Of a stretch of 64,000 nt of DNA, positions 1 through 19,843 are shown in pieces. Position 1 is the stretch's first letter. Each line of letters opens with the position of its first letter. Position numbers and translations under genes: made by a program. The stretch is from Diplonema japonicum (lineage: Eukaryota; Protista; Euglenozoa: Diplonemea). The stretch lies in contig OZ025665.1 of assembly GCA_964019335.1 (NCBI GenBank), positions 1 to 64,000 of the forward strand. The letters run 5' to 3'. Under the pieces are notes generated by a model that searched no databases, had not been told where the DNA came from, and saw only the letters and a program-made list of their open reading frames with translations.

Positions 1-3000
1 CCCTGTCAGGTAGAACGCCGCCTCAGCTACCTCCTCCTCCATTCCTGTAGCCGCAGCTTCCCGTTCCATCGCCTCCTGATCCTCCCGCTCCCTCCTCTCC
101 TCCTGGGAGTGCTGCTCCGCTTCCGAGTCCAGTTCCATCTTCTCCACCAGAACCTTCCCCTTCCTGATGGCCGCCCTCGCCACGCCCTTGACCACGGCCG
201 CCGACACTGCGGCCTTCATGTCGTTGAAGACCTCCACCCTGTGTCGTCGCGTCCTCTTCGCTGCTTCAGATGCCACCTCCTTCAAGAACTCCCTGGCCTG
301 CCCTGCCAGACCCCCAAACGTTTCCACCGCAAAAGGGCGGAACTGCTTGTGAGCCTCCTTGCACGCTTCCATGTGCTTCTTGTTCTTCGCCTCCTGGGCC
401 TTGTTCGCAGCGTAGCCAGCAGTTTTTGAGGCCTGTTCCAGGTTGCCCACCGTCCGAGGGTGCACCACCGTCACATCCACCGCCAGCCCGTGGCCGTTTC
501 CTTGTATCCCGCTCGGGAGGAGGATGTCCGCTGGCTTTGCCGATGAGCCAGCCACGATGTGCTTCTCCTCCCTGACCACATCTATCGCCCCCTCCCTGCA
601 CTGGTCATACAGGACGTCCCTCACCCCGTTGTGGCGGTGTTGCGTGGTCCCTCCGTTCTTGCAGCACTGCGCGTGGTCTCCTCGGGCGTCCATTTCCTCC
701 CCGCAGTTCAAGCACTGTGTGCCCTCTTGGTATAGAGGCGCCCCGAGCCACCACCTCGTCGCCACCTTGAACTCCTCATCGTTCATCAGGTTGCCATGGG
801 TGAGGGGGGCCACCAGCCATGCCCCGGCTCCTTGCATCGCCGTCCCGCGGATCCTGGCCTTGTCTTCCTTCCCTGCCTCCCCCAGGAGGCCTTGCCATGC
901 GCTGTCCTCGAGAATGAGGGACAGGAGCCTCTGCTGAGCTGCCTTCGGGTAGTCCTTCAAGAGCCCCACGCTCATCAGGGCCGCCTCGCCCGGGACCTTC
1001 TCGTTCAGCCACCTGCAGTGCTCCTCCCAGTCTGCCGCGGAATCCCAGTCGTACATGGGGTCGATCTCCTGGGAGATGTTCCGCGTCGCCACCAGGGATG
1101 CGATGTTCGCCACTCTCAGGTGCTCCTGGCAGCTCCTCAGGCCCAGCCCTCCCCTCCTTACTGCTAGGCTTGCTTGTTTCCACTGGTGCCCCTCCAGCTC
1201 CCCTCCCGCCAGGCACCCCATCGTCGATCTGACCAACTCGTCGAACCTCTGCATGGCGTCCCCAACATGGGTCTCAGGGATGGTCCGCATGAAGTGCACC
1301 ATCTTGCCGAAAGACTGGCAGCTGCGAAGGAGGGCGTACCCCGACTGTGCCCGCATCTTCGACTGCATCCGGAAGGTCTCCGCCAGCCTGTCGATCTTCC
1401 TGTGGAGGAAGGCGGTCGTGTACTCCGGTGTGCCGATCGGTGCCCCTAGCAGCTCGAAGTTGCCGTCGCGGGACACTTTGTCCTTTCTGAAGCCCTTGAA
1501 GCCCCACTCGGCTGGGTCGTTGGGCTTCTCCCCGCGTACCCAGATGAGTTCGCATTTCGCCGGCTTCACCGACAGGTGAACATCTGCGCTCAACTCCGTC
1601 AGGATGTCCACCGCCTTCCTCACTTGCTCCACCTCGCCCGCGAAGACCCCATCGTCCAGGTAAAACTGACAGATGTCCAAGTCCGTCTGTTCCTTGACCT
1701 TTTCAATGATGGGTTGGAGGGCGAGGGAGAAGAAGAGGGGTCCCAGAGGATCCCCTTGCTGCACACCCTCCTTCGACTGCAGGACCTTCCCATCCCCGTA
1801 CAGCAGGTTCGTGGGATTCTTGTAACAAAGTTGCGCCCATTTTTCCGCCCCAGCAGCCTTCGCCCTCACTTGTCGCAAGATCTCGTGCCTGCTCATAGAA
1901 TTGAAGGCGTTCGCGTAGTCCACCTTCACGATTACCCTGTTTCCCTCTCCCTGTTCCCTCTCCCTCTTCACGTATTGCCTAAAGGTGTGCACAGCCGCTT
2001 CCATGCCCGCCGGCACCGCCACCCCCAGTTGACCACCTTTCCTCAAGTACTCCGTGGCAACTGCAGGGGCTATTTTCACGACCAGGGCTTTCGCCACTAA
2101 CCTCCTCAGGCATTCGCCCACCGCGATTGGGCGAACTCCCTTGTCCGGCTTCTTCAGCGGAGTAAGTGAACCGCCTGCTAGGAACGGGACGACGTCACTC
2201 GGGACCTCCCCCTGGACCATCACATTGCACGTCCTTGTCAGCGACTCTGTGATCCCTTTCGCCTTCGCCCTGCCCTCCACAGCTGCCCGGAGATGTTCCA
2301 CGCTGAGGCCCGAAGGGCCCGCCGACTTCCCCTTGCCCAGGTCCTGCAGGGTGCGGACACACTCCAGGGGTGTAAGCACTTCCGCCTCTTCCGGCTCCCC
2401 CAGGTCCAGCAGGCTCGGGTCATGCATTGGTCTCGGGTGTAGCGCCTCGAGTTTCCTCTCTGTGTCCTCGTCGTCGTCCGCTAGCCCTACCGCCGTCAAG
2501 GCCGCATTCGCCTGGGAGAATCTCATCTCCCTGGTCAGCGTCTCCGCTCTGCTCAGGCGTGTCTCCTCCGTCGGCTCCTTCGGAGGTACATACTTAGGCT
2601 TCGGCAGGTCCTCCCACAGCTCCTTGTGTTCTCCCCTCAGCCACTGTGCGAGCTTGTTCTTGTTGTTCTTCTCGTTGGTCTTCCTCCTATCCTTCCCACC
2701 CTTGCGCTTCGAGAGGCACACCTTGGGGAGCATCATGAGCATGACCCAGGACTCGTAGGTCTTCTCTTCCACTACCCTGTCCATGCATTGTTTGAGTGCC
2801 ACACTCCAGTCCCTCCTCAGGCTGTCTGGGACCCACTTCAGCACCCTTACTTTTGCCGACATCACTTCATCCAGGGAGGGGAGCTCCGACCTGTGCGGCG
2901 CCGCGCATCTCTCGGTGGGGGCGAACTCTCCCATCTCCTTCAGGCACTCCTCGTGCGCACCCTTCTCCGTGCTCGCCAGTCTCCCACAGACACACGGGCG

Positions 3001-5611
3001 CAGGCCTATGCCCCGCAGATCCGCCTGCGATACCTCCGACTCCATCAGGTGATCGTTCAGGTGCTCCGTCAGGGTCGCGAACGACATGAAGGCCCTCCCC
3101 TTCATCCTTAGCGACCTCTCGCACCCATACACGGGGCAGTACAGGTCTGTCTTTGACTTCAACGGGGCGGCTTCCTCCGCTCTTCCGACCCCCGGGTCCA
3201 CTCTTTTCTCTACTGGATCCGATACCTTCATGAAGTCTTCGCTAGGTGCCGCTGCGGGTTGCACCCCTGGCGCCTGCGACCTCACGCTGTAGGCCCACCC
3301 TCTCATCCTTTCCATCTGTTGTGTGTCTGCCTCCACCGGGTCATAGTGCTCGCCGTTGAAGCCCATGACGATGTGCGACCCTGCCGTCCCCAGGTCCACA
3401 CCCTCTGCCGCTATCTCCAGCACCGACCACTCGCCTCCCACCACCACTAGGATAGGCCTCTGCCAAAGATCCGAGGCCGCCACCAGACATACGTGGTCTC
3501 CCCACGACTTGTCCTTGCTCATCTCCCTGACGTATTCCTCCAGGCCCTGGCTGCCCTCCTCCATGAAAGGCGAGTACTTCCCAGCCTCGGCCCGCATGTG
3601 CTCCATCACTTCTGCCCTCACCTCTGCGTGCTTCCGTTCATCTCGGTGGAGGAAGTGGGCGATGGCTCGGAACATACAGTTCCCGTCTCCCGCCACTGGG
3701 ACCAGTCTCGCGCCCGTGAACGATATGAGTGCATCCATTGTTGCTCTTCCGTCACCCTGGAGGCTTGGCTTGGCCTGCTGGGGCTTCTTCTTCTTCGACT
3801 TGGTTTTCCCGGCACCCGCCTGGTTCGAGCATTCCGGACACTTTTTGCTGCTAGCCGCGCATATTCCCGGGCAGCTCTCGCATATTCCAAAACCCATCTC
3901 CACTACCTGCTCCGCCGTGATGCCGTCTTGCTTCCGCCAGTGACCAGCGACATGGTACCGGAGTCCCCCCTTGGTCTTCGCCTTGAAGTCGCAGCTTTTG
4001 CACTCGAATGCTGCCCCTCCTCTCAAGGCACCTCCTGGGAGGGCGACACTGCGTCTCGAGCATGGGGGGGGCTCGGCGGTTGCTTTCAGCCCCTGATGGA
4101 AGGGGAGGGGAAGGGACTGGGGAAACGGAGGAGGAGGGGGTAGTGGAGACGAGGGAAGGAAGTGGGGGTTAGAAGAGCTCCTGCCCCCAACCTTGAATGA
4201 AGGTCTGCCAGGCCTTCTACCCACCCACCTTCTCCTCGTTCTCCTCGTGGGACGCGACCCTTCCCCTTGTGCACTTGAGTGGCCACCAAGGTCTGGGGCA
4301 GGGGCGAGGGTGACAAGGCAGCATAGAAGGTGGAACAGAATGGGGAGGGCAACCCTCCACCCACTACTCTCCACTTCCCTTTCCGCCTGCCCTTCCTCCA
4401 GCCTCCTGCGCCTCGTTCTTGCTTCCCTCCTGCCTGCGTTCTTCGCTTCCCTTCTCGCTCTCTTCCTCTCCTGCCTCCCTGCCTCTTCCCTGTCGGCCTC
4501 TGCTTCCCTGGCCGCCTGCCTCCTCCGCCTCCTCGCCTCCAGAGCAGCCTCCGTCCTCCTCCTCTTCCTCTCCTTCTTCTTCGGGGCTGCCTCCTTCTTC
4601 CTCCCAGTTCGCACACCCCTGCGCCTTTCCCTGGGTGGGTTCCACCGGGTCGCCCTGCCAGCCGTTTCCACCGTGTCTCCTCCCACTATTCCTTGGAGTG
4701 GGGGCAGGGCGTGCGTGGACGGTGGGCGCGGTCCCTCTTGGGGTCTCCTCAAAGTCCTGAGGTAGACCTTATTCCCCATATGCACGTCTACATAGGGGGG
4801 AAGGGGTGCCTTCGCTGGGGCAGGTGCGGGTTGGGTGTGTGGCCTAGGGGCAGGGTCCCGGTGGCTCTCAGGGGGGATGGGTATGTCTCCTACAGGGGGT
4901 GGGGGTGGAGTTATTAGTGGAGGGGGGCTGGTGGGGGGCTGCACATGCTTGTCCTTTTCGGGGGAGGAGGGTGGGTTTGGTAGTGGGAGGGGGTTGGTGG
5001 GGGGCTGTACAGGGGTAGGGAGGGGGCTGGTCTCACGCGGGTCCTCCGGATGGCAGGGGGTTGGGTCGGGGACACATCTGAGGGTGACGGAGACCCTCCG
5101 GCCCTCCGTCGCTCCTGCCGGGATGGTGTGTGTCCACCCGTGCCTCGCTTCCCCCTCCAGCACCGCCCACGACCTGGGGGGGACGTGGAAGCGTGCTTCC
5201 TTCCCACCCTTTCGGAACACCATTTTCGTCGGTGTTCCGAACGAGAGGATCAGCACGATCCCCCCCAGCACCCGGTCGTCGGTGTGCTCCGCGATCCCCA
5301 CCCCAGGCTGGTAGCTATTAACCAGCACCTGGTTGGGGACCCCCTCCAGCCCCGCCTCCTCCCACGCCCTCTTCACCCAGGGGACAACCCCCTCGGGGAT
5401 GCCCCTGGTGGGCCTCACCACCCCCCTCTTCCTCCACTCCCAACCCCACTGCTGCACCCTTCGACCGGTGCCACAGTGGGCGAGCTCCTCTCCCTCTTGG
5501 GTGAGGAGCTCCACCGGGAGCTGGAGGGGGAACGGCCCCGTCCGCATTCCCCCCGGCCTTTCCCCCTTCTCGAGCCGCCAGGGGGCGCCCTTCCTCTCCC
5601 CGTTCTTGCCC

Positions 5612-5613
<2 letters not shown>
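1..5613 (-). CDS. Retrotransposon polyprotein >1871 aa: AlkB - basic/TM region - ZnF - OTU - ZnF - RT - RLE - C-terminal extension (3'-partial)
   Basis: ATG at 5613 follows a pyrimidine tract. Hand translation puts AlkB (5077-5470), C2H2 finger (CKSC..HVAGH, ~3940-4005), OTU (GDGNCMF ~3670-3690; FNGEHY ~3345-3362), YLDD (~1650) and RLE (~170-720) in one frame. The ORF track lists no stop-terminated minus ORF in that frame between 1 and 5613. Confidence 0.88.
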
Positions 5614-5645
<32 letters not shown>

Positions 5646-5837
5646 AAGGAAAAGAGAGAAAAGAGAAGAAAGAAAAGAAAGGAAAGAGGATTTCTAGTGG
5701 GTTTCTATGTAAAAACAAACAAAAACAAAAAACAAAAACAAAAAAAAAGAGAAAGGAAAATACAGGGATTTCTAGGTGACTTTTTTTTTTTTTTTTTACA
5801 GATGAACACAGACAACAAAAGAAAGAAAGGAAAGAAA

Positions 5838-6215
5838 GGGAAGATAAACAAGTCTACTTTTTTTTTTTTTTTTTTTTTTTTCTAAGGGAGTTTGCCGACT
5901 TTGACTTGACCGAAGTTGTCAGGGGTCAACACAGTTGTGTCGGGCTTTTCGTGGCCGGAGTAGGGGCCGGGGGTGAGGCTGCTCAGCTGGCGTCTGATGT
6001 GAGACGCTGGTGGAGCTGAGCGCCGGGACTTGGGGGCGGGAGGAGGGAGGGAAACACCAGACAGCGCGCACAGCAACAGCACAGCACCGACAACCCACAC
6101 AGCAACACCACACACGCAGCGTTCGACTGCCTGCCGCCTATTTTTTTCTTTTAGGGGGCGGGTTGCTGTAGGTCAGGGGGAGGGTCCCTTCCCTTCCCTT
6201 CCCAATAAACTTTTT
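5838..6215 (-). repeat. Conserved 5' non-coding module of the retrotransposon family, copy 1
   Basis: Close match to 16104-16497; 6111-6179 is identical between copies. Several stems and a (GGGAA)3GGG run. Confidence 0.9.
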
Positions 6216-6216
6216 T

Positions 6217-6287
6217 AAAAAGGGGGACTTGAGAAAATAAATAAAAAGGGGGACTTGAGAAAATAAATAAAAAGGGGGACTTGAGAA
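6217..6287. repeat. 26-bp tandem repeat, ~2.7 copies (aaaaagggggacttgagaaaataaat)
   Basis: Seen directly at 6217, 6243 and 6269. Confidence 0.95.
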
Positions 6288-6289
6288 TG

Positions 6290-6738
6290 TTTTTTTTTTT
6301 TTTTTTTTTTCTTCAAAAGACACACAAGGCACGATAAATCTTAAGAGAAAATAAAAATATTCCAAAACAGACAATCAAGTTCCAACCTGGGAGGAAGGCA
6401 TGGGTTTCTCTTTTTCTTTATGGGAGGGAGAGGGGAAGAAGAAGAAGCAACTCCAAATGATAAAAATTCAAAAATAAAAATCTCAAAAAAGGCTTAAAAG
6501 AAGAAGAGGCAAATTCAAAAACATACTAGGGAGGAATGAGTGGGGCAGGGGGTAAAATTTAGGAGGGGGAAAGAGGGAGAATCAAAAAAGGGGAAAGGGG
6601 CAGAGTGACCAATGTCCACTCTCCTCCTGCGAGTCGTCTTGGATCCATTTTTTTTTTTTTTTTTGTTTTATAGTGTGTGTTGGGGGGGAGGGGATCCTTT
6701 CAATAAAGTACAGAAACTGTAGCTTTAGAATCGTTGGT
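6290..6738 (-). pseudogene. Processed retrocopy of a short trans-spliced, polyadenylated RNA (SL exon ... A21)
   Basis: SL exon at 6738-6701 is joined to non-GT sequence, followed by a short 29-aa ORF (MDPRRLAGGEW...) and a poly(A) at 6310-6290. Confidence 0.6.
6701..6738 (-). ncRNA. Spliced-leader exon copy, diplonemid type (not a complete SL RNA gene)
   Basis: Reads ACCAACGATTCTAAAGCTACAGTTTCTGTACTTTATTG, with the euglenozoan CAGTTTCTGTACTTTATTG 3' end. It is followed by AAAGG rather than the GT donor. Confidence 0.92.
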
Positions 6739-7444
6739 GGACGGGAAGCCCCTCGAGATTGATTCGCCGGAGGTCAGTGGGAACAGGGGTCTGGCGAGGA
6801 AGAGGGTGCCCTCGAATGAGGCTCAGTCCGCCCAGCGGACCCCAAAAGTGAAGAAGGGTCGCGGCCAGCTGGACGTAAGAGAGTCGAGCCTAGCCGCTGG
6901 CATGCGCGTGCTGTTCGGAGCGGTTCCGCCCCCTTCCCTGACCCCCTTGGCCGTGGGTAGCAGGCCGCCGCAGGAGGAAGGCGAAACGGTGCAATCTCCC
7001 ATTCCGGGGGCGAGCGGTGCAGGGCTCTACTCTCCAGAGGCGAGGTTCCCGGAGGCGCCTGTGGTGTCCATGGCCGCGGACCTGTGCGAGTCGGACGGGA
7101 TGGAGGCACATTCGGCCTCCTCCGGTGTGGACAGAGAGCCTTCGCCCGCTCGTCCGTCGCAGTCTCCCGTGCTGGGGGCTGAAGGCGGGGGGCGCCTCTC
7201 TCCGGAGGTCAGTACCCCAGAAACCTCCAACCCCGATGTCCGGGTAGAGGGCGGGGAAAAGGTCGCCAGAAAAAGGGTACCTTCCCACGAGACCCAGTCG
7301 GCCCAACGCGCCGCTAAGGTCGGGAAGGGCCCTGTCCAACGAGATGTGAGGGGGCCCCAGGGTGGTCGATCCACCCCCTGGGCTCGCAAGGGCCCAGGGC
7401 TTGAGCAGCCAACATTAAGGGTTCCTGAGGGAAGCCCACTTTAG
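6739..7444 (+). pseudogene. 5'-truncated GC-rich coding fragment with an internal duplication, probably from a mobile element
   Basis: The open frame starts at the SL junction with no true ATG and contains ARKRVPS.E.QSAQR..KV.KG..Q.DVR twice. Confidence 0.4.
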
Positions 7445-7448
7445 AATT

Positions 7449-7488
<40 letters not shown>

Positions 7489-7625
7489 CCATTACAACAA
7501 ATCGACAATGGGGAAAAAAAAAAAAAAGAAAGATAGCAAAAGAAAAAAAAAGGGGACCGGGAGTTTTCCCCCCTGAAGTTCCTTTGTTAAAACATGTTTG
7601 CTGTTGGGTTTCCGTTTCTTTTCTT

Positions 7626-7821
7626 TTTGGTTTAACTAGGAGTTTTCCTTCTACAGCTTGTTTGCTGATGGTTTTGAGTTGATTCTCTTTTATTTTTATT
7701 TTTATCTTTGGTTTAACTACAAGTTTTCCTACAGCTTGTTTGCTGATGGCTTTAAGTTGACTCTTTTTTATTTTTATTTTTGGTTTAACTAGAAGTTTTC
7801 CTTCTACAGCTTGTTCGCTGA
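7626..7821. repeat. Tandem repeat with 72-81 bp period, ~2.6 copies
   Basis: tttggtttaacta..agttttc..ctacagcttgtt.gctga at 7626, 7707 and 7779. Confidence 0.9.
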
Positions 7822-8758
7822 CGGGTGGGTTTATCGGGCGGGCTTCCATAGCTGGTGATCTATGGAAGCCTTCCCAGATTTTTTCTTTTTTTTTTTTTTT
7901 TTTTTTTCAGGCCGGGCTGGGGAAGGACGACAAGACCACCAACGGAGGAGAAACCGCTGCAGAAAGGGGAAAGGTGCAGGAAGACGAAGAGGACGAGAGG
8001 GCGTCTCACAAAGACTCCCTTTAATTCATATATCTTTTATTTTCCTTTTTATTTTTCTTTTCTTTATTTTCTTTCTCCCAACCCAACCCCCGAAAAAAAA
8101 GAAAAGAAAAGAAAAGATTCATTCCTCCCTAGTTTATTATATTTTGCATCAGGTTCGCCGAGAAAATAAAAGGAAAAACAAAGAAAGAGAACGGCAGCCA
8201 AATTTTAAATTTTTATTTTATCATCAAAGGAGGTTTGAAAAAGAGAAAAATTAAAGAGAAGAAAGAGACCTTTTTCTCCTCTATCGATAAGTGGTTCACG
8301 AACTCGAATCTTTATCACCACTTTTTAGTGCATGCCAGATTTTTTTTTTTTCTCCCGCCTTGTTAAAGAAGTTTTAATTTACTAATAAAAAAAAAAAGTG
8401 AAAAGAGGAGTAGAAGACGATCCGGTGGGGGGCATGGGAACCATAAACCGTGTCTTCCATCGCGATCGGCAAGGCGGGGGCTTTTCCGTCCCATGGGTGA
8501 AAAGAGGCGGATAAAACCACTATTCCGGACCCCCCCCCAACACTGAGCATGCACTTTTTCCCCCCAAAAAAAAAAAAAAAAAAAAAAAAAGGAAAAAAAA
8601 AAAAAAATCTAAGTGGTTCTATCTAGCCTGGCCGTTGTAGCACCTGTTCCCTATTCTTTTATTTTTCCCTTTTTTTTTTCTCAGAAAAAAAAAAAAAAAA
8701 AAGTTTCAGATCTTCCTATGGCGGGGGGGGGAGACCAGCCCCCCACACCCCCGCTGGC

Positions 8759-11700
8759 CTATCTGGCCAGCGAGCCTTTGGACCTCTTCTTGTGGGGTAT
8801 GGGCCCCACCCGTGCCCTCCCCGACTCGAGCTGCAGCCAAGCCACCGCACTGTTCACCGGGGCCCAGTTCTCCTTGTTGCGCACCTTGACCGTGTCCCGC
8901 ACCAGGTCGTCGCTCCCCAGCTCTTCCATCAACCTGTGCTCCGCCAAGAACTTGAACTGGGGCCCGGTCATCCCCTTGAGCTCACCCCTGCATATGTTGG
9001 CTTCGACCACGGTGCCATCCGCCCCCGTACCCTTCAGATAGATGTAGCCACCCTCCACACAATCCGAGTCAGTACTGGCCGATCGGGCCCGGGCCCGCTT
9101 CTTGTCCTTCTTGCTCCACTTCAGCTCTTCCAGGGTGGGGAGGTCCGTGGCAACCACCTCAGGCCGCCTCTCCCTGTCTTCCTCCTTCTTCCGGGCCAAC
9201 AGCCCAAGGTACCTCTCACGAGGAGGTACCTCTCAGGAGACGTCCTCGAACAACCCCGGGACCGTCACCACCGCTGACTGCAGGTCGACCTCTTCAACAC
9301 CCATCTTCCGCAGATGGTCCTGGACAGTGCGCCTCGTCTCCTTCTCGCAGGGCCCCCTCCCCTCGTAGACGTCGAGGGTGACCTTCCTTCCATCCCTCAC
9401 CCACGCCTTCACTTTGATCAGGTCCTTGACCTTTCCCACTGGGGCCCTTATCCTTGCGTCGCACCTCTCCAAGAACTCACGTAGTGTCACCTTGGTAGCG
9501 CCGGCTCCCGCCGCAATGCCCACTACCCCTTCCTTCCCCGGTGTCGGGTGGTGTCTGCACCCCCGGGTCTGCAACTTGACCACCCTCCATGCCGTTTCCA
9601 GAGTCCCCTTGAGCACGCCACCCTTGAAACGAACAGGTTGCACCGCCGAACACCCACACGCGTACGTGATCTGGAAATCCTGGACCGTCCTCGGGAACTC
9701 GAACTCGCGGTATGTTTCCGACTTCTGCACCTCACAACCCACAATGCGGCTGCGGCGCTCTCCGTCCGACCCACCTTCCAAGCTTGCGAAGTACTGCTTT
9801 ACCATCATGTATCCAAGTCCAGCGATACCAATCTGGCCAGCCATAGCCACCTCCAGTGGAACACCCAGCGACTCGGCCTTCGCAAGAAGCATCTCCTCAG
9901 TCCTCTCCCTTCCAGGGTCCGTTCCTTCTTCAAGGATGATCTCCACCCGGCCCTCGAACTGGATGATGAACTTGAGCAGTCGGTCCCCCGGCCTCGCCCT
10001 CAGTGGCACCATCGCTCTCGGAATTGGGATGCCCATCACCACATCAATCGGGTCAAGCTGAACGAAGTCTCCCCCTACTTCCACCTGCTGTTCCCTTTCC
10101 GGTGCCCCGACTCCCATCAGCTGATCTCCCTCCGGCGTCTGGATCCCACCCCTAGGTGTGTCAGGCCCCGACTGGCTGCCTCCGCTCGGTGCGTTCCCGC
10201 CCTCTTTGGTCCCTTCGGGGGCGTCATCCGCCTGCGGCTTCAGAGTCCTCCCACCGCCCTGTCTCTTCGCAGCTTGTTCCCTACAGAATTCGCTCACGGT
10301 CATCTTCCTCGTAGCAGTTGTCGCACTCTGGTCCCCCTTGTTCGAGTCCCTCTGGGCCTCCGTATCCCCCTTAGGACACTCGTCCAAGGTCTGGTTCACC
10401 GCAGCGTCAGTCGCCCCTTGTCTCTTCCCATCTTCCTGGGCCTTCGGGTCAAGCTCCCCTCCCTGCCCAGCCCTCTCGCTGGATCCTGTTCCGGCCATCT
10501 CCGTGTCTTCTCCTCCCGGCGAGGCTGCTTCGAGTCCTGCTCCCGCTTTCCCTTGTGTTCCACCCTCCACCGGTTCCGCCTTTCGCTGCTGCTGCATTCG
10601 GGCGTCCAGGTCCTTCTTCGTCTGCTCCAGAAGGGCATCCAGCTGGTGGGCCACCGTGATTGGGGGTCCGCCTCCCTGTCCCTTCACTTCCCGGACGACT
10701 CCTCAGCTTCGGTGGTTTTTTCATTGCCGAAGGAGTCCTCTGTGAGGTCAGTGTTGGATTCAGTGTTGGGTTCGTTGTTCGCTTCCTCGTTGTCCTTTTT
10801 TTCCTCTTCGCCGTCCGGTACCGGGGGCCCTGGATCCAACTGTACAGGCCCTTTGACTAACAGCGCCCCTGCTTCGATCTCATCATGGCCGTTGACACCT
10901 CTTGGACCACGCGCCTGTGTATCGAGACTCTGTCCCCGTGAGCCCGCGCAGCTATGCTCCTGGACAGTTTCTTCGTGAGGTAGACTGCTGCCTCCCCGAA
11001 CCCCCCAAAGGTCTCCATCGCGAAAGGTACAAAGGCCACGCGTGTCTTGGCGAGCTCCGCCTCATACTTCTGGCGCTTGTAGTGTTCCGCCTTCGCCGCT
11101 GCGTACCCCGCAGTCTTCGCCGCCTGGTTGACACAAGACTCGTTCCTCGGGTGCACGATGACCACGTCCATAGCCATTGGGCGGGAACCCCCCACCCCAC
11201 CTGGGAAGAACACGTCCGCCGGGCGCTGGGACGACCCCGGGATCAGCCCCGTCTTCTCCATCGTTGCGCTCACCCCGGCCCACTGACAGTGTCTGTGGAT
11301 GGTCTCCTTCACCCGGTCGTGCCTCGCAATCCTGGCGTTGCCGCATCCCTGGGCATGGTCACCCCATACGTCCATCCCCTCAGTCTTGCACCTCGGGTCG
11401 TGGCAGCTCTCACCCTGCTTGTAGACCGGAGCCCCCAACCACCACTTGATCAGAGCCCCAAACTCGTTGTCCGACAGCTGGTTGTAGAAGTCAGGCGTCG
11501 CCGTCAACCACGCCCCCGCATAGTGCATTGACTCCGACATCAACCTCGCTCTCGAGCGTGCATCTGCTTTCGCCAAGAGGTCCTCCAGCGCCTTCTCATC
11601 AAGCACCCTAGAGAGCCACCTCTGGCTGCAGATGTGGGGGGCCTTGGCCACCATGTCGGGTGTAATCTGCATGCCGCCCTTCGTCCTGTTGAACCACTCG

Positions 11701-14700
11701 AGCCAGCTCCCCCATACACCCCCTTCCAGCCCATGTTCGTATTTGGGATCCAGCTCCTTGCACAGCTTCATCGTCGACGCCCTCGAAGCCATGTTGGCCG
11801 CGCGCAGGTGCTCCTGGCAGCTCCTCATCCCAAGCCCACCGACTTTTACGGACAGTTTCGCCTGCTGCCATTCTTTCGACCCGTTCTCGAACTGCATGCC
11901 GCACACCTTCGACATCGTCTTCCGCACCATCTCGTCGAACCTGTGCATGACCCCTCCCACATGCGAGTCTGGGACCACTCTCATGTAAAACACCAGTTTG
12001 CTGTATGAGCTGCAATACCGGAGAAGTGTGTACCCTGTCTGCCTCCCCACCTTGGTCAGCATGTCGAAGTTCTCTTCCAGCGCGTCCAAGCGTTTGTTCA
12101 GAAAGGCTTGCGTGTACTCCGGCGATCCTATCGGCGCCCCCAGGAGCATGAAGTTCCTCTCTTTGTGGAAATTCTCTTCTGTCAGGCCATCGAAGCCTGT
12201 GTCCTCCACTGTCTGGGGGAGGTCGCCACTAACCCATATGAGCTCGCACTTCTGGGGTTTCACTTTCAGCCCTATCATTCCGCTCAGCTCACACAAGATG
12301 TTGTACGCCTTTCTCACTTCATCCACATTCCCCACAAGGACGCCATCGTCCAGGTAGAACTGGAGGATGTCCAGGCTGCAGTCTTCACTTATCTTGTTCA
12401 CCAGGGGTTGGATGGCCAGAGAGAACAGCAGCGGTCCCATCGGGTCCCCCTGTTGCACCCCTTCCTGGGACTTAATCACCTTTCCGTTGTAGTATAATTG
12501 GGAGGGCACCCTGTAGCACCAATCGGCCCACGCATACAGCCCCGACGCTTGCTCATAGGCCTGTGAGCACAGCTGCCTCCGACAAACACTGTTGAAGGCG
12601 TTGGCGTAGTCGATCTTGAGGATCACCTTGTTTTCCTGCTTGTTGCCCCGTTCCCTGTCCACATACTGCCTGATGGTGTGTATAGCCGCCTCCATTCCAG
12701 CAGGGACCGATACCCCCACCTGGCCGCCTTTCTTCAGGTACGAAGAGGCCACTTCCGGAGCGATCTTCTTCACAAGGGATTTCCCCACCAGCCGACGCAG
12801 CACATCCCCAACGGCTATGGGCCGCACGTCCCTGTCGTTCTTCTTGAGGGCCACAAGGTTCGCCCCTGCCATCAGCGGAGCCACCTCCCTAGGGGCCGTG
12901 CCTCTAGCTAATGCGTTGACTGCCCTCGTCACCGACATCAAACAGCCTTGAGACTCAAAAGCTCCGTCCACCGCGTCCTTGATGTGCTGGGCTCTCAGAC
13001 CAGTCGGTCCCGCAGCAGTCCCCCTCGGGAAGTCCCTGATTGCGTCCAGCACTTCTTCTGGCAAGACTTCTACCGCTTCCTTCGTCTTCGCCGGGTTGTC
13101 CCATTGGGGGTGTAGTGGCTCTGGATGTTTGCTCTGCAGCGCTCTCCAGCAATCCTCATTGTCTTCCGCCAGCCCCTGGGCTACAAGCGCCGCGTTTCCT
13201 GCCGAGAACCTCCCTTTGCTGCACAGTTCCGTGGCCCTGGCGACCTTAGAGACCTCGTCGTTCTTAGGTTCCCCCTTCTCACCTGATTCCAGCTTATTCC
13301 AGAGGGCCATGTAATTTCCCTTCTCCCACTCCTCCATCTGGCCTGGACACTCAGCTCCGTCTCCTTGTCCCGCTTCTTCCCTCCCCTCTTCTTCCACAGG
13401 CAGGCTTTGGGGAGCATCGCCACCAGCAGCCAAGCCTCCTCTGTGTTGTCCTTCACCGCTCGGCCCAGAGTGTGCTTAAGGGTAAGCCCCCACAGTCTTT
13501 GAAGGCTCGTCGGGATCGACCCCATGGTCGTGACGTTCATGGCGGCTATGGTTTCCAGGCTGGGTAACTCGGTCCTCGTCGGGGCCGGCGGGGGGGTCGT
13601 GTATTCCCCTTCCCTTCGCACCGCCTTTTTGCACTCGTCGTGGCACCCCTGACCCTTCCACACACAGCCCCTGCACACCAGGCACCTCTCGAGGTCCAGT
13701 CTCCTCAGAACGCTCTCCGGGATCTCATCACTCTCCAGGTGCCCATCCAGGTGACACTTCCATACCCTTGTCGAGTTGAACGGGGTCGTGCTTTTGCACT
13801 TCGACCTAGCGCAGTTCGCCACCGGACAGTACAGGAATTGCTGGTTCCTTGCCCCCATCTGGTCCAACACCCCTGCCTTCCCATATCCAGGGATCGCACG
13901 GTCTATTATGTCCCACTCCCCGATGTCCTCACCCGGGGCCTCGGAGGGTTGCTTACCTGCCTTTTGTAGAGCTACCGATTGGGACTCATCAAGGAGCATC
14001 ATCATCGACTCCTCCTCTCCGACTGCATACTCGTAGTGGTTGCCGTTGTACGCCAGCACCACCACCTTCTCGTGGTCGGAGTTGTACTCCCCTATCATCA
14101 GGACTGGGTTGTTCCCCCCAGCAACCACGAGTATCGTGCGGCCAAACGCTTGTCCTGCGGCTGCCAGGCACAAGTGGTCTCCCCACGTCGCTGCCGTGCC
14201 CATCCCTTCCAAGTACCGGTCCCAACCCTCACTGCAAAACGGGGCATAGTGCTCCTCCCGGTGTTTCATCCATTCTACAACCTCGCTCCTGATGTGGGTG
14301 TGGTCGCCGTAGGCTTCCCCGAGCGAACCGGCCAGGGCGTGGAACATGCAGTTCCCGTCCTTCTCCGTCGATCTCCTCGTCAGCTTGAAGCTCTTCATGA
14401 TCTCGTCCACTGACTTGCCGGCCCTGGGTTGTTTGTCGGGGTTCCACAGATTCCGCTGCCTGTGTAGTGCACAGTGCGTCTGGTTCGACGAGCACGCCGC
14501 AGCACACGTTCCACAGAGGTTCACCTTCATGCTCCTCGCCTGCTCTTGTTTCACAAAATGATGGTGGACCGCATTGAGGTGTTTAACTAGACAGCTTGCC
14601 ACACTGGTGCGGAAAGAGCAGTCTTCCATCCGGCATTGATGTTTGTCTGATCCTTCTTTTTCCCCCTCCTTCTGCGCCTCCATGTGCTCATCATCCAAAT

Positions 14701-16072
14701 CCATGGGGGGAGGGTCACCACCTCCTTGCAACGCGTCCCCTGCCAGCGTCAAGTCCGCAAAGGGGTCCAGGTGTTCGGCCTGAAAGAGCTTATCCTCCGT
14801 CTCAGCTCGTTCCTTCGCCGCTTGCTTGGCGTCCTCCTTCTTTTTTCTGCGTCTTGAGCTTCTAGGCGGGCCCAAGTACACCGGCAGGTAGTGACCTCTC
14901 GATCCGCGTCTTGTCTTCTTCAGCTTTACCGGTCCGAATCTCTGGGTCGGGCCAGCACCAGCTTTCCCCACCATCACTTCCGACATGGCCCAGAGCGACA
15001 TCAGCCCCCCTATCCAAACTGAAGTGCTTCCCACCAGGGTGCCTCCTACCGCTAGCCAAGCGAGCTCCCCGGCGGACCATTCATCCCCTCGGGGCCCCAC
15101 CTGTACCCTTGACCTGCGGGTGGTCCTCCTGTCGCTCCCCGGCCTCTTCCACAACACTGCAGCATGCAGGAAGGAGGGGGCCATCCCGATGCCCGCCCCC
15201 AGCACCTGCCTCACCCCTGGGATCAGCAAGAGGGAGAACAGGGCGACCCAGGCCCACACCCCCAGGTGCTCCCATCTCATCCCTTCCTTGCTGTGTCCCG
15301 TCCGTCTGCGGTGCCTCCTTGCACCGGTTGCAGCCCCAGGTGCCGGGATTCTGGGTGCCAGGGGTTGGGCTCCAGGCGTTCCCACCTCGGTCAGCTTCAG
15401 CCCCATTGCAGGGTCATCTGGCTTCTGTTCCAGGGCGGCCTCGTGTTCCTCTCTGCGGGCCCTCCTCCTCCCTTCTTTCCTCGCACGACGGTGCCTTTTC
15501 TTCTCCTGTCTGGCAGCCTCCCTCGCCCCCTCCCTCGCCTTGGTCCTCTTCTCCCGACGCCTCTGAAGGGCCGTTTCGCTCCTGTGCCTCCTCTTGTTCT
15601 TCTTCCTCTTGGGCGCTGGCTTAGGTTCCCTGCCACCCATGGCAATCCAGGGGGCTCTTTTCTGTCTTCTCACAAGGGTGTGCAGTGGTGCTCTCACGTC
15701 GCTCGCAGCCTCCGCCCCAACCACACCTTGGCAGGCGGTGGGGGCGGGTGCTGGGTCCCCCTGGTTGTTTGAAAAGAAAAAAGGTTCCTTCTTGTTTGTT
15801 TTTTTTTTTTCTTTCCCTTCCACCCTCAAAAAAAGCCCCCGGCCCTTGGGGACCAGGGTGTACACCTCCGTAGAGGGTCCAGAAAAAATGGGGGGCAGAG
15901 AGGGAGGAGCACTACCTTCTCTCGGGCGTGCTGTCTCTCCCTCTGCCTTTTTTTCCTCCGAAGAGGGTCTGTTTTTCACCTCCGTGGAGGGTCCCTCTGG
16001 GGAGGGCTCTAAAAATGAAAAAGGGGGGGACAAATGGGGGGGAGGAACACTACCCTCTCTCGGGGGTGCCAC
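8759..16072 (-). pseudogene. Disrupted polyprotein of element 2
   Basis: ORFs 13181-16072, 10857-13433, 9233-10687 and 8759-9199 join through three 1-nt frameshifts (~13338, ~10865, ~10690) and an in-frame TGA at 9233-9235. The joined protein is collinear with element 1. Confidence 0.82.
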
Positions 16073-16103
16073 CTCTTCCCCTCTCTCTCTATAGGAAAGA
16101 AAA

Positions 16104-16497
16104 GGAAGATAAACAAGTCTACTTTTTTTTTTCTTTCTAAAGGGGGTTTGCCGACTTTGACTTGACCGAAGTTGTCAGGGGTCAACGCAGTTGTGTCGGG
16201 CTTTTCGCGGCCTGGAGTAGGGGGCCGGGGGTGAGGCTGCCCAGCTGGCGTCTGATGTGAGACGCTGGTGGAGCTGAGCGCCGGGACATGGGGGTGGGAG
16301 GAAGGAGAAAAACACCGGACAGCGCGCACAGCAGCAGCAGCACAGCACCGACAACCCACACAGCAACACCACACACGCAGCGTTCGACTGCCTGCCGCCT
16401 ATTTTTTTCTTTTAGGGGGCGGGTTGCTGTAGGTCAGGGGGGGGGGGGGGGGGGGGGTTCCTTCCCTTCCCTTCCCTTCCCTTTCCAATTTTAAAAA
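16104..16497 (-). repeat. Conserved 5' non-coding module, copy 2
   Basis: Matches 5838-6215. Confidence 0.9.
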
Positions 16498-16645
16498 ACC
16501 AAGTGGTTGCTTTATTTCTCGTGCGGGTTTGCGGACTACTCTTGTACTTAGAAACTTTCCGAGGATTGCAAAAGAGGGTCAGTTGTTGACATTTTTTTCC
16601 GGACGAGCTCATATCACGCTCAACATTATATTCACTCCCAGCTTA

Positions 16646-16732
16646 GCTTATAGAGAAATAAGGCCCAGGAGTGACATAATGTACAGGAGTGATATTATGT
16701 TACATTATGTCACTCCTGCACCTATTTTAAGC
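16646..16732. repeat. Palindromic element with 18-bp perfect arms and an internal direct repeat (MITE/transposon-end-like)
   Basis: caggagtgacataatgta (16666-16683) pairs with tacattatgtcactcctg (16701-16718); the spacer is a degenerate copy of the left arm. Confidence 0.8.
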
Positions 16733-17461
16733 CAAACTCCCTAGAAACACAGAAAACTATGGGAAGAAAGCCTAACGCGATGGAGAGGACGTCTCGGAGT
16801 AAATAGATATTTTTTAAAAGGTCGTCTGCGTGGCCTGGCTTGCCCTTTCAGGCTTGGGAGTGAAGTCGTGCCACTTCATGGAGGAGTTTCAGCGGGCATT
16901 TCAGGCGGCTGATGAACTTGGCCTCCGACACGGACTCGACCAGTATAGCACAGCCGCGGCCCCAGCTATAAGGGCATTGCCCCCCCCCCCCCCCCCAGCC
17001 CAGCGCAGTTCACAGTGCCGTTTCCGGACAGACAATTAAGGTACACGGTACCATGACGCAACCCGATTGTGACGTCGGTTCAGCTCCGCAACAGAGCACA
17101 GCAGAGACTACCTTCACTGCTGTCTCACGTATTAGTACTTGACCTCTACAGCTTGCCTGTTGCCACCCACCCACGTTGCTGTCTATGTTCACGTCATAAC
17201 TTCCTTCGGTGTAAACCCGCCCGCCATTTGGTGTTTCCCTGTAAGAGGTAAATCTCGAAAAAGCAAACCAAACCAAAATAAAACGAGTAAAAACTCGATA
17301 AAACTTCAGTGTGCATGGGGGTGCTCACTGTTCCGAGGGAAAAAAAAAAAAGAAAGGACGAAAAGGTCGCATCACTGCCATGAAAAAAACAAAACTCTAA
17401 CAGTATGGCATGTGTGTGTCATAGAGATGGGTGAAAGACACGAGCACACGCACAGTGTCGC

Positions 17462-19843
17462 TCAAAAGCATTCATCTTCGGAGCTTGCGTCGTCACACGA
17501 CAGAGCGGTCGAAGGCGACGAGCATGGACTAGAGGGGACCGAAGAATCCCCTAAGCTGGAGGTGTCATCTGTCCGCTCTAAGGAATCAAGTTCTTTGATG
17601 TAAGTAACGCTCTTCGGAAGATGCTCTTCATTGGCTTCCTCGAGCTCCTGTTGCAAGTCGTAGCCTTCAGCAGTGAAGGTGAGGCACGGGAGCTCGCCAT
17701 TGTACTCGAACAGCTTCCTGATCTCATCAGGAGACCACTTCGAAGGGTTGTGGACGGCTGTCTTGTCGACTAACATATTACTTGACAACTTCATCTTTAG
17801 TAGTTGCCTTTGCAAGATCCTCTCCTCCAAGGTCCCTCTGCACACCAATCTGTATATTTTGCACGGCCTTGTCTGTCCTTCTCGCCATATCCTAGCCACC
17901 GCCTGCAGGTCATTGGCTGGGTTCCAATCCATATCAACAAGTACCAGCCTCGAAGCACCGACAAGATTCAGCCCTACACCGCCTGCCTTGCAGCTGAGGA
18001 GCATCACATCGATGTCGCGCGAGCTGTTGAAAGAATCCACGATGGCCATGCGCTTGGCACTGGGAACCTTCCCATCAAGCCGCTCGCTGCGCAGGCCTGA
18101 CAAGGAACTGGCTATCATATCCAACACTTTCACAGACGATGACACCACGACGCACTTGTGCCCTTGTGACTTGAAGGAGTCAAGGAGGTGCTTTAAAAGA
18201 GGTATCTTTCCTACGTTATCCTTACTACTGATTCCGTTCGCAGCTTTCTGGCACGCTTCGCGTAGGTCGGAGTTGATTGCCTGCTCACCTAAAATGAGAG
18301 AAGGGTGAGTTAGGACCTGCTTAAGAGCAGTTATGGACTGCAAAGGATCAAGCAAGCTCCCTGTAAGGCTCAATATGTGCTTGTATAAATGCTCCTGCAA
18401 AAGTGACGGCTTGAAGAATAACAAAACTTCAGATTTTGGGGGAAGGTGGCTGCTGATGTCGGCAGAAGTCCTCCGCAAGATGTACTGCTCAGTAAGATCC
18501 TTCAGCTTACTCTGCATCGTGTTGCCCGTGACTTGCTGTTCCTTGCTGCATCCTGCTTCTGCCATCTTTGTGATGTGGGACGCGTATTCTTTCAGATACC
18601 CCTTCTTGTCACCAAGGAGACCTGGGTTCACGAAGTCAAGAAGTGAGTAGAACTCAGCAAGGTTGTTCTGCACAGGCGTGCCAGTGATCAAAACTCTCCT
18701 AGTTGTTGGTATTTTTTGCAACACAGTGGAGATCTGTGTGTTAAAACCTTTTAGTCGGTGCCCTTCATCGCACAACAATAAGTCACATGACACATTTGAG
18801 AGTGCGCTGCTGTAGCTTCTGCACATCTCGTAGGACAAAATGAGGACGTTGCACATGCTATTTAGGTTGAAAGTTTTGATCTTCCCTGAAGTGTAGTCTT
18901 TCTTGTCAGCTGCTGCCAACAACGTAGGTTGCGCCCTTGGGTTGTTTCCGAGCCACTTCTTAAACTCTCTGCCCCAGCTTCCAACCAGGCTCGACGGCAC
19001 CACAATGACCACCTTCTTTACGCTACTATGTTTGTTCTTCACATGGGCCTGAATAAGTGAGATGCACTGCAGAGTTTTTCCTAATCCCATCTCGTCAGCT
19101 AGTATGACGCCCCTATAGCCACTCGGCCTGCTAGTGACATCGTACAAAAACTTCACACCTTCCCGCTGATGTGGTCGGAGATGCCTGCCGAGGGGCACAG
19201 CGGGCAGATGGGCCAGCACCTTTCCGTTGCTCTCTTTGAGAATTAAGGTGCCCTCTGGAAGAGTGTCTGGCGTCATCTCAGGTTGAACAGCGGCCTTTTT
19301 TCCACCATGCAGAGGGCGCTTTAGGGAGACTGGCAACCTTTTAACTATGGATGGGGCTGGCGCCGATGGACAAGCGTTAGGAATAGAAGACGTCTGCTTG
19401 GCCCCTACTTCAACAAGGAACGCACCGCACTCAAGTTCATCGCCCATTTCCCATTCCTTGAGACTCTTGAAACTCTTCCCGATAACCTTGTCCGTCTCAT
19501 CATGCAGTGTCAACGTGCGCTCTGCGCACACCATAGTCCCCGGCTCCCAATTCTTGTGCTTCTTACTTGAATTCTTTGCAAAGTTCACCTCATACACGAC
19601 ATCGCCTCCCACACCTGCCTGTCCCACGGCGGGCTGTGGTGCGGCTTCTACGACGGCAGGCCGCTTCCGCCCTTTCAGATTAGGCCTTAACACAGATGCT
19701 TTTGTTTCGTCTTGTTTAGCCTTTTCGCCATCCCCTAAATCAATGTCGATGTCCAGTAGCCCACCCGACTCAGATGCAGATTCACGTGCCTCGACACGCG
19801 GCTTCTTGGCAAATGGCGTCACGAAAGCCTTCCTCTTAAACAT
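17462..19843 (-). CDS. RAD54B: RAD54B/Rdh54-like SNF2 DNA translocase
   Basis: LRPHQREGV, ILADEMGLGKT, CDEGHRLK, TGTPVQNNL, AGGVGLNLVGASRL, WNPANDLQAVARIWREGQ, plus an N-terminal KKHKNWE motif. Likely ATG at 19843. Confidence 0.85.
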   Translation of the reverse strand: MFKRKAFVTPFAKKPRVEARESASESGGLLDIDIDLGDGEKAKQDETKASVLRPNLKGRKRPAVVEAAPQPAVGQAGVGGDVVYEVNFAKNSSKKHKNWEPGTMVCAERTLTLHDETDKVIGKSFKSLKEWEMGDELECGAFLVEVGAKQTSSIPNACPSAPAPSIVKRLPVSLKRPLHGGKKAAVQPEMTPDTLPEGTLILKESNGKVLAHLPAVPLGRHLRPHQREGVKFLYDVTSRPSGYRGVILADEMGLGKTLQCISLIQAHVKNKHSSVKKVVIVVPSSLVGSWGREFKKWLGNNPRAQPTLLAAADKKDYTSGKIKTFNLNSMCNVLILSYEMCRSYSSALSNVSCDLLLCDEGHRLKGFNTQISTVLQKIPTTRRVLITGTPVQNNLAEFYSLLDFVNPGLLGDKKGYLKEYASHITKMAEAGCSKEQQVTGNTMQSKLKDLTEQYILRRTSADISSHLPPKSEVLLFFKPSLLQEHLYKHILSLTGSLLDPLQSITALKQVLTHPSLILGEQAINSDLREACQKAANGISSKDNVGKIPLLKHLLDSFKSQGHKCVVVSSSVKVLDMIASSLSGLRSERLDGKVPSAKRMAIVDSFNSSRDIDVMLLSCKAGGVGLNLVGASRLVLVDMDWNPANDLQAVARIWREGQTRPCKIYRLVCRGTLEERILQRQLLKMKLSSNMLVDKTAVHNPSKWSPDEIRKLFEYNGELPCLTFTAEGYDLQQELEEANEEHLPKSVTYIKELDSLERTDDTSSLGDSSVPSSPCSSPSTALSCDDASSEDECF

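Follow-up and report, generated by a model that had tools for sequence, protein, structure and literature searches.

The window analysed here, a stretch of 64,000 nucleotides of DNA, carries two retrotransposons, elements 1 and 2, in which a short ubiquitin-like tetrapeptide precedes an OTU protease domain. The question raised by this locus is whether the tetrapeptide is a site at which such an element cuts its own protein. An earlier note on this DNA had placed LRGG and LQGG shortly before the first zinc finger of elements 1 and 2, respectively, and had proposed that the OTU domain cleaves there. Minus-strand translation confirmed both tetrapeptides. The parts of element 1 are as follows.

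1..5613, minus strand: single open reading frame (ORF) of at least 1871 aa, extending past the window start
5077..5418, minus strand: AlkB-like 2OG-Fe(II) oxygenase domain (PF13532, E 2.4e-11)
4390..4647, minus strand: Arg/Lys-rich region (best window 16 of 30 residues)
4297..4353, minus strand: hydrophobic segment of 19 residues (mean hydropathy 2.2)
4015..4044, minus strand: extended motif P10-P1 (family pattern hydrophobic-x-[PG]-x-[ASDE]-[LM]-x-G-G)
4015..4026, minus strand: LRGG, residues 530-533, predicted P4-P1 of a cleavage site (Leu codon TTG)
3934..4002, minus strand: first zinc finger, C2H2-type, read from the sequence
3331..3729, minus strand: OTU domain (PF02338, E 3e-16) with Cys646 (3676-3678) and His756 (3346-3348)
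3049..3138, minus strand: RT-proximal zinc finger CPxxxC...H...H, invariant across nine aligned families
1540..2154, minus strand: reverse transcriptase, RT (PF00078, E 6.5e-19)
304..711, minus strand: CCHC zinc finger and restriction-like endonuclease (RLE) motifs (RHN, PAD, D), read from the sequence by their motif pattern, with no profile used

In order, element 1 encodes AlkB, a Pro-rich stretch, a basic region, a hydrophobic segment, LRGG, a zinc finger, OTU, a second zinc finger, RT and RLE. The hydrophobic segment is a possible membrane anchor. The tetrapeptide reads VALPGGALRGG/AAFEC in context (slash, predicted cut), and it ends 4 residues before the first zinc-finger Cys and 113 before the OTU catalytic Cys. 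Element 2 has the following parts.

13184..16174, minus strand: upstream frame, first Met at 15640, with the order basic, hydrophobic, LQGG, zinc finger, OTU, zinc finger
14720..14731, minus strand: LQGG, residues 482-485 of the stop-to-stop frame (Leu codon TTG)
14021..14401, minus strand: OTU domain (E 5.8e-12) with Cys609 (14348-14350) and His713 (14036-14038)
10860..13475, minus strand: RT-RLE frame, with a frameshift near 13340 between it and the OTU frame

Here the context is LTLAGDALQGG/GDPP, ending 28 residues before the first zinc-finger Cys and 124 before the OTU catalytic Cys. The RT-RLE parts of the two elements are 44% identical over 829 aa, and both elements have a PF00078 RT match above cut-off; their PF02338 OTU matches score 60.5 bits (element 1) and 46.7 bits (element 2) against a cut-off of 23.3. 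The N-terminal AlkB part described in the earlier note is present in element 1, but a Pfam domain search found no AlkB in element 2. Likewise, all parts of the claimed ZnF-OTU-RT-RLE enzyme (ZnF, zinc finger) are present in element 2, but the frameshift lies between OTU/ZnF and RT.

A non-coding block upstream of both ORFs (5830-6205 versus 16095-16480) is 89% identical over 393 nt, unlike the proteins of the two elements, which share only 44-53% identity. Its minus strand folds with a z of -2.6, and Rfam gave nothing at gathering level in 5500-17500, which includes the block. It could be a 5' element that both share, or a target sequence common to the two. Immediately 3' of the RT-RLE frame of element 2 is a 489-aa frame (9236-10702, minus strand) with no Pfam match and no BLAST match among the relatives tested; it is possibly a C-terminal extension or the ORF of another element.

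One further feature bears on the class of these elements.

6701..6740, minus strand: nearly complete exon, which we take to be a spliced leader (SL), 1.1 kb upstream of the element 1 ORF, with no GT intron start after the exon

This SL-like exon is single copy within the window, with none near element 2, and the 3' end of element 1 lies beyond the window. It may have been left as a scar by a CRE-type insertion, or it may represent the 5' end of a trans-spliced RNA that was retrotransposed. Because of this exon and the source names of relatives with the same architecture, we assign both elements, from their sequences, to the CRE/SLACS-like RLE-type non-LTR retrotransposons of a diplonemid-like host, with the qualification that our RT trees contained no SLACS, CRE1 or CZAR reference and that the SLACS name is a source label on the D. 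papillatum relatives only. Those relatives are named "Retrotransposable element SLACS 132 kDa protein" in the source, and the others are transcript products of Rhynchopus humris and Diplonema ambulator. The CRE clade (SLACS, CZAR, CRE1, CRE2) is described in the available text of PMC12278014 as having one ORF that encodes zinc fingers, an RT and a restriction-like endonuclease. Elements 1 and 2 likewise have N-terminal zinc fingers, an RT and C-terminal CCHC plus restriction-like endonuclease motifs, in one ORF in element 1 and with one frameshift in element 2, and the SL-like exon lies upstream of element 1. Unlike the CRE clade as described there, the family considered here adds an N-terminal OTU protease, an [LM]xGG junction and AlkB; the word "protease" has 0 occurrences in that paper.

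LxGG is common in these proteins, with four copies in the 1871 aa of element 1 against 1.2 expected from composition and one in the upstream frame of element 2 against 0.64 expected, and the two window copies are therefore insufficient by themselves. For each element, the chance that a 40-residue window contains the motif is about 0.03. An RT search for relatives, from which 120 of 160 proteins were listed, was combined with cluster members and an OTU profile and gave seven further N-terminal-OTU families among the relatives listed (P0193, P0019, P0151, P0023, P0032, P0093 and P0134). Six of the seven have [LM]xGG 8-17 residues before the first folded domain; P0134 is without it. A later profile search covered 1.84 billion representatives, and the best 150 of its 6141 matches, which we examined, added P0239 and the R. 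humris protein P0240, both with MRGG; P0246/P0254 of D. papillatum, whose LAGG precedes the first finger by 11 residues; and P0249, which has no motif and was counted as a miss. Because the profile used in this later search took in the poorly aligned motif region, there may be a small bias to motif-bearing matches. The family-wide conservation that the earlier note had named as a check was borne out: [LM]xGG closely precedes the first folded domain, be it a zinc finger or the OTU, in 9 of the 11 testable families beyond the window, or 11 of 13 with the window elements, versus 0 of 69 control clusters.

The 13 families counted are those with in-frame sequence at the junction, and six proteins were left out. 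P0243 starts too near the OTU domain, P0242 and P0139 have their upstream parts deleted or replaced relative to their families, and P0026 and P0043 are N-truncated. The upstream part of the sixth, P0244 from D. ambulator, is compatible (28 of 1000 shuffles) with a shifted frame encoding both the motif and a zinc finger, and it was left out as a protein with no DNA. Of the two families that lack the motif, P0249 is probably a chimeric gene model, because over residues 1-141 it matches what is the C-terminal end in other elements. P0134 has an OTU domain that looks intact and no in-frame motif. A frameshift as the reason for the missing P0134 motif was unsupported (16 and 74 of 100 shuffles reach the score).

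The controls were the 69 of 178 RT clusters without an N-terminal OTU that have at least 40 residues before a zinc finger. The zero count refers to [LM]xGG within 40 residues of the first zinc finger; within 100 residues, 4 of the 69 have it. Among other OTU proteins from the best 150 of the 6141 profile matches, the motif occurs 40 residues or fewer from the OTU domain in 3 of 107. Fisher tests of motif families against controls gave p values of 2e-10 to 2e-7 with kin treated as independent, and these values overstate independence because all of the N-terminal-OTU families fall in one clade. That clade, with nine families in the tree plus two N-truncated proteins, had support of 91/95 in IQ-TREE. 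As read from the tree, the co-occurrence of OTU and motif is one evolutionary event, and the link between them is a single contrast.

DNA scans with the RT alignment yielded loci in metagenomes (80) and in the genome collection (49), and no viral loci. An N-terminal OTU of the diplonemid family type was absent from all loci of the metagenome and genome-collection scans, and these loci were therefore used as controls; one of them, L011, has a diverged OTU in another frame. The five genomes behind scan loci contained 5 OTU matches, all in one genome, and in the stretches read none of them lay beside an RT of CRE type. When the ZnF-OTU region was searched against proteins of 1029-3275 aa, nothing was found, and a two-sequence profile found 17 stand-alone host-type OTU proteins. 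L083, L088, L098 and other loci are prokaryotic MAG records that carry eukaryotic retrotransposons and Helitron-like OTU genes, which indicates contamination of these prokaryotic bins by host DNA.

When the sequences are anchored on Gly-Gly, which is invariant, the flanks are 10% identical between distant families. P4 is Leu or Met (Met in 5 of the 11 motif families), P5 is mostly Ala, Ser or Asp, P7 is Pro or Gly, and P1' varies among A, G, N, C and D and is never Pro. The pattern [PG]x[ASD][LM]xGG, which was defined after the fact, is confined to the OTU clade among 324 sequences with 359,136 residues (many of them near-copies), with one occurrence within an OTU; among the later families, P0240 matches it and P0246 has Glu at P5. 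In near-identical copies (contigs, four runs), an adjacent LPGG has changed to LPGS, and no change in LRGG appears among the 40 rows listed of 56, which is a weak indication. Between the eight lineages, identity in the OTU/ZnF regions is mostly 22-39%, and every lineage has at least one motif family.

The simplest explanation of the motif would be chance, or passive inheritance of a Gly-rich linker, given the abundance of LxGG and the single ancestor shared by the motif families. Against this, only P4, P2 and P1 (weakly P5 and P7) persist between flanks that have otherwise diverged, none of the eight lineages is without a motif family, and the controls have none. We consider this explanation very improbable and largely refuted. 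The motif appears to have arisen once and then been kept over long branches, which is good evidence for selection. Judged by these alignments, [LM]xGG is a real, selected and conserved junction motif of the OTU-bearing diplonemid CRE/SLACS-like lineage.

The motif lies at the join between a variable N-terminal part and a conserved (ZnF)-OTU-ZnF-RT-RLE part, the two being carried in one long frame. From its end to the OTU catalytic Cys there are 32-38 residues where no zinc finger lies between them and 108-126 with an intervening finger. Upstream, an Arg/Lys-rich window (13-17 in 30 residues) is present in each of the nine families that have sequence in that part, and hydrophobic segments above threshold were found in 6 of 10 proteins examined. 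AlkB occurs in two families only, element 1 and the D. papillatum family, and is 43% identical between them.

The position of the motif at this join could also mean that it marks a translation start or ORF1/ORF2 boundary, with its Met or Leu codon (ATG, TTG or CTG) as an internal start for the enzyme part. The frequency of Met at P4 fits such a start, as do eight gene calls in two families that begin at the Met of MRGG, the TTG that encodes Leu in both window elements, and a pyrimidine-rich tract ending in CAG about 60 nt upstream of the element 1 motif, which is a possible trans-splice acceptor. Gene callers often choose an internal Met, however, and the eight calls were examined as proteins. 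In 9 of the 11 motif families 134-920 in-frame codons lie upstream of the motif, and these include AlkB in element 1 and the D. papillatum family. An internal start also leaves the invariant Gly-Gly and the P5-P10 pattern unexplained, and we regard it as improbable.

We consider it probable, from the conservation and by analogy with viral enzymes described below, that [LM]xGG is a site of proteolysis, the OTU domain of the element itself making the cut behind the second Gly. The OTU catalytic Cys and His are invariant in nine aligned families. In the earlier proposal that the OTU domain releases the enzyme by self-cleavage, the kept motif and the kept catalytic residues stand as found; the cut and the enzyme that makes it we infer.

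The same site could instead be cut by a host deubiquitinase or ubiquitin-like protease, with the OTU domain of the element having another role. Processing by a host enzyme is plausible because P0060, an OTU-less relative, carries LRIRLRGG upstream of ZnF-RT, at the end of an apparent ubiquitin-like domain (residues ~270-347; identified by eye and not called by Pfam). In contrast, neither window element has a ubiquitin family match upstream of the motif at E up to 0.1, the sequence there being Pro-rich or basic low-complexity. Host deubiquitinases generally need the ubiquitin body and not a bare tail. The motif had been called ubiquitin-like, and it is of LxGG type, but no pure ubiquitin copy occurs: besides Met at P4, P5-P7 follow the family's own pattern and are unlike the ubiquitin tail. 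In the sequences compared, moreover, the motif is confined to the OTU-bearing clade. Cleavage by a host enzyme thus seems unlikely to us.

The fold of the OTU domain complicates the assignment. The best fold matches of the predicted structure of element 1 were OTUD3, OTUD1 and DUBA (E 4e-7 to 1e-6), followed by nairovirus OTUs. In AlphaFold2 models of element 1 residues 505-880 and of P0216, built on shallow alignments of 9 and 24 rows, the motif is in coil with pLDDT <50, and the ESM Atlas gave only OTU1-type clusters, under 0.9. Of the viral OTU-type enzymes, EAV PLP2 and TYMV PRO process their own polyproteins and the CCHFV OTU does not, according to the part of PMC3968130 available to us. 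The predicted nearness to host OTUD1/OTUD3/DUBA and to the nairovirus enzyme, which leaves its own protein unprocessed (PMC3968130), argues against self-cleavage, as does the absence of the motif from P0134, with its intact-looking OTU, and from P0249. A deubiquitinase can also be retained for other reasons, because other CRE-like lineages carry a C-terminal OTU or USP with no motif before the zinc finger.

These C-terminal domains, USP (PF00443) or a second OTU, were seen in several CRE-like lineages (P0022/P0193, P0118 and P0132; P0019, P0032, P0086, P0104 and P0122). P0193 combines an N-terminal OTU with a C-terminal USP and RNase H1 N-terminal repeats. Because such domains recur, the sequences indicate that deubiquitinases have been captured repeatedly by CRE-like lineages. 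A separate cluster, P0342, consists of 15 members of ~954 aa from long ENA contigs, a repeated protein with an internal OTU and without RT; it is probably another diplonemid-type mobile element ORF.

Deubiquitinase domains are known from other transposons. The available text of PMC2836005 describes OTU domains in Ginger1 and Helitron transposons and the recurrence of ubiquitin-system proteases, their role being left open, and a 2026 preprint (PMC13405545, as far as its available text goes) describes one Symbiodinium ORF2p with an N-terminal OTU and OTU/Josephin domains in Haematococcus Dualen/RandI. In all of these a deubiquitinase is fused to a transposon enzyme and is proposed to act on host ubiquitin pathways, and the available parts of the two sources describe no LxGG self-processing site. 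Such recurrence with no known self-processing (PMC2836005; PMC13405545), together with the host-type predicted fold, would fit a regulatory role for the motif, as a pseudo-substrate or docking element of a pure deubiquitinase: it would bind at the OTU active site and be either uncut or cut without consequence. Yet P1' is free and never Pro, no sequence feature is present that would block hydrolysis, and the 2A-like peptides at the matching junction in relatives, described below, point to splitting. We find this role improbable.

Cleavage by the element's own OTU has close viral counterparts, and viral OTU proteases process sites of this kind within the polyproteins that contain them (PMC3968130 and PMC8348309, available text). 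Marafivirus PRO cleaves ubiquitin-like LXG[G/A] junctions in cis, and it also hydrolyses LRGG-AMC (PMC8348309, in part). Like the tymovirus and marafivirus PRO and arterivirus PLP2 in these partial accounts, the diplonemid OTU is an OTU-type Cys/His protease in a polymerase polyprotein with a junction motif resembling the ubiquitin tail, and by analogy it likely works with the motif as they do. Unlike these viral enzymes, it has a retrotransposon host, a predicted fold nearer to OTUD1/OTUD3 and a single predicted site; the MRFV cis site is C-terminal to the protease, whereas the diplonemid motif is N-terminal to the OTU domain. Among retrotransposons, the RLE-type NeSL and Utopia-1_TSP carry a Ulp1 protease before the zinc fingers and RT (PMC4640811, available text). 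They share with the diplonemid elements the RLE type and a ubiquitin-system protease, and differ from them in protease family and clade; the available part of that description does not mention a self-cleavage site.

A different means of splitting is known at a comparable position. In the non-LTR elements L1Tc, Ingi, CR1, L2 and Crack, 2A peptides provide a splitting signal upstream of the enzyme domains, and the available text of PMC3894237 describes 2A mainly in APE-type elements (for the elements named, see also PMC13405545, in part). The 2A mechanism is ribosome skipping, unlike proteolysis at [LM]xGG. None of the 11 motif families has [NH]PGP before the OTU Cys, and the 2A core D-x-E-x-N-P-G-P is absent there. 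In contrast, CRE-like relatives of the OTU elements have 2A-like motifs at the corresponding junction, and [NH]PGP is found within 150 residues in 10 of the 69 control clusters. We observed GDVExNPGP, GDIHPNPGP and GEAxxPGP in RLE-type CRE-like elements, ahead of the zinc finger/RT and in D. papillatum and Symbiodinium among others (P0042, P0044, P0045, P0050, P0051, P0074, P0083, P0109, P0114, P0117, P0126, P0129 and P0136). Two 2A-bearing elements fall inside the OTU clade in FastTree and outside it in IQ-TREE, and an AU test did not reject their joining with the OTU clade (p 0.232).

If [LM]xGG is cut by the OTU of the element, the OTU domain would bind the motif like a ubiquitin tail and could cut in cis or in trans, and one ORF would give an ORF1-like protein ending in -GG and a free (ZnF)-OTU-ZnF-RT-RLE enzyme. 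More speculatively, the cut may release the enzyme from a membrane-bound or RNA-coating N-terminal part and so give it access to the nucleus, and the OTU domain may deubiquitinate as well. We judge it slightly better than an even chance that the whole history is of this kind: a host deubiquitinase captured by a non-LTR lineage and turned into a polyprotein protease, which separates ORF1-like and ORF2-like products by self-cleavage at a site mimicking ubiquitin, with relatives using 2A or a ubiquitin-like fusion at the same junction.

Non-LTR elements are generally described as having one or two ORFs whose protein products stay unprocessed, 2A skipping being the exception, in the available text of PMC3894237, which concerns APE-type elements. 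The D. papillatum genome paper and supplements, in the parts available, list SLACS RTs, and the OTU/motif architecture was not found there. Our literature search found no account of an LxGG site conserved in elements of this type; it did not extend to subscription papers, Repbase Reports or bioRxiv supplements, where OTU-bearing CRE elements may be described.

If the self-cleavage reading is true, these elements would have a virus-style processing that is not described for non-LTR elements in the papers found. A candidate substrate beside the protease gives the role of a transposon deubiquitinase a direct test, and the family is present in the model diplonemid D. papillatum. RNA virus replicases combine OTU-type processing and, in some plant viruses, AlkB. 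Plant RNA viruses encoding AlkB are mentioned in the available part of PMC9289625. Self-cleavage at [LM]xGG, if true, would represent convergence of these retrotransposons with the replicases of plant and animal RNA viruses.
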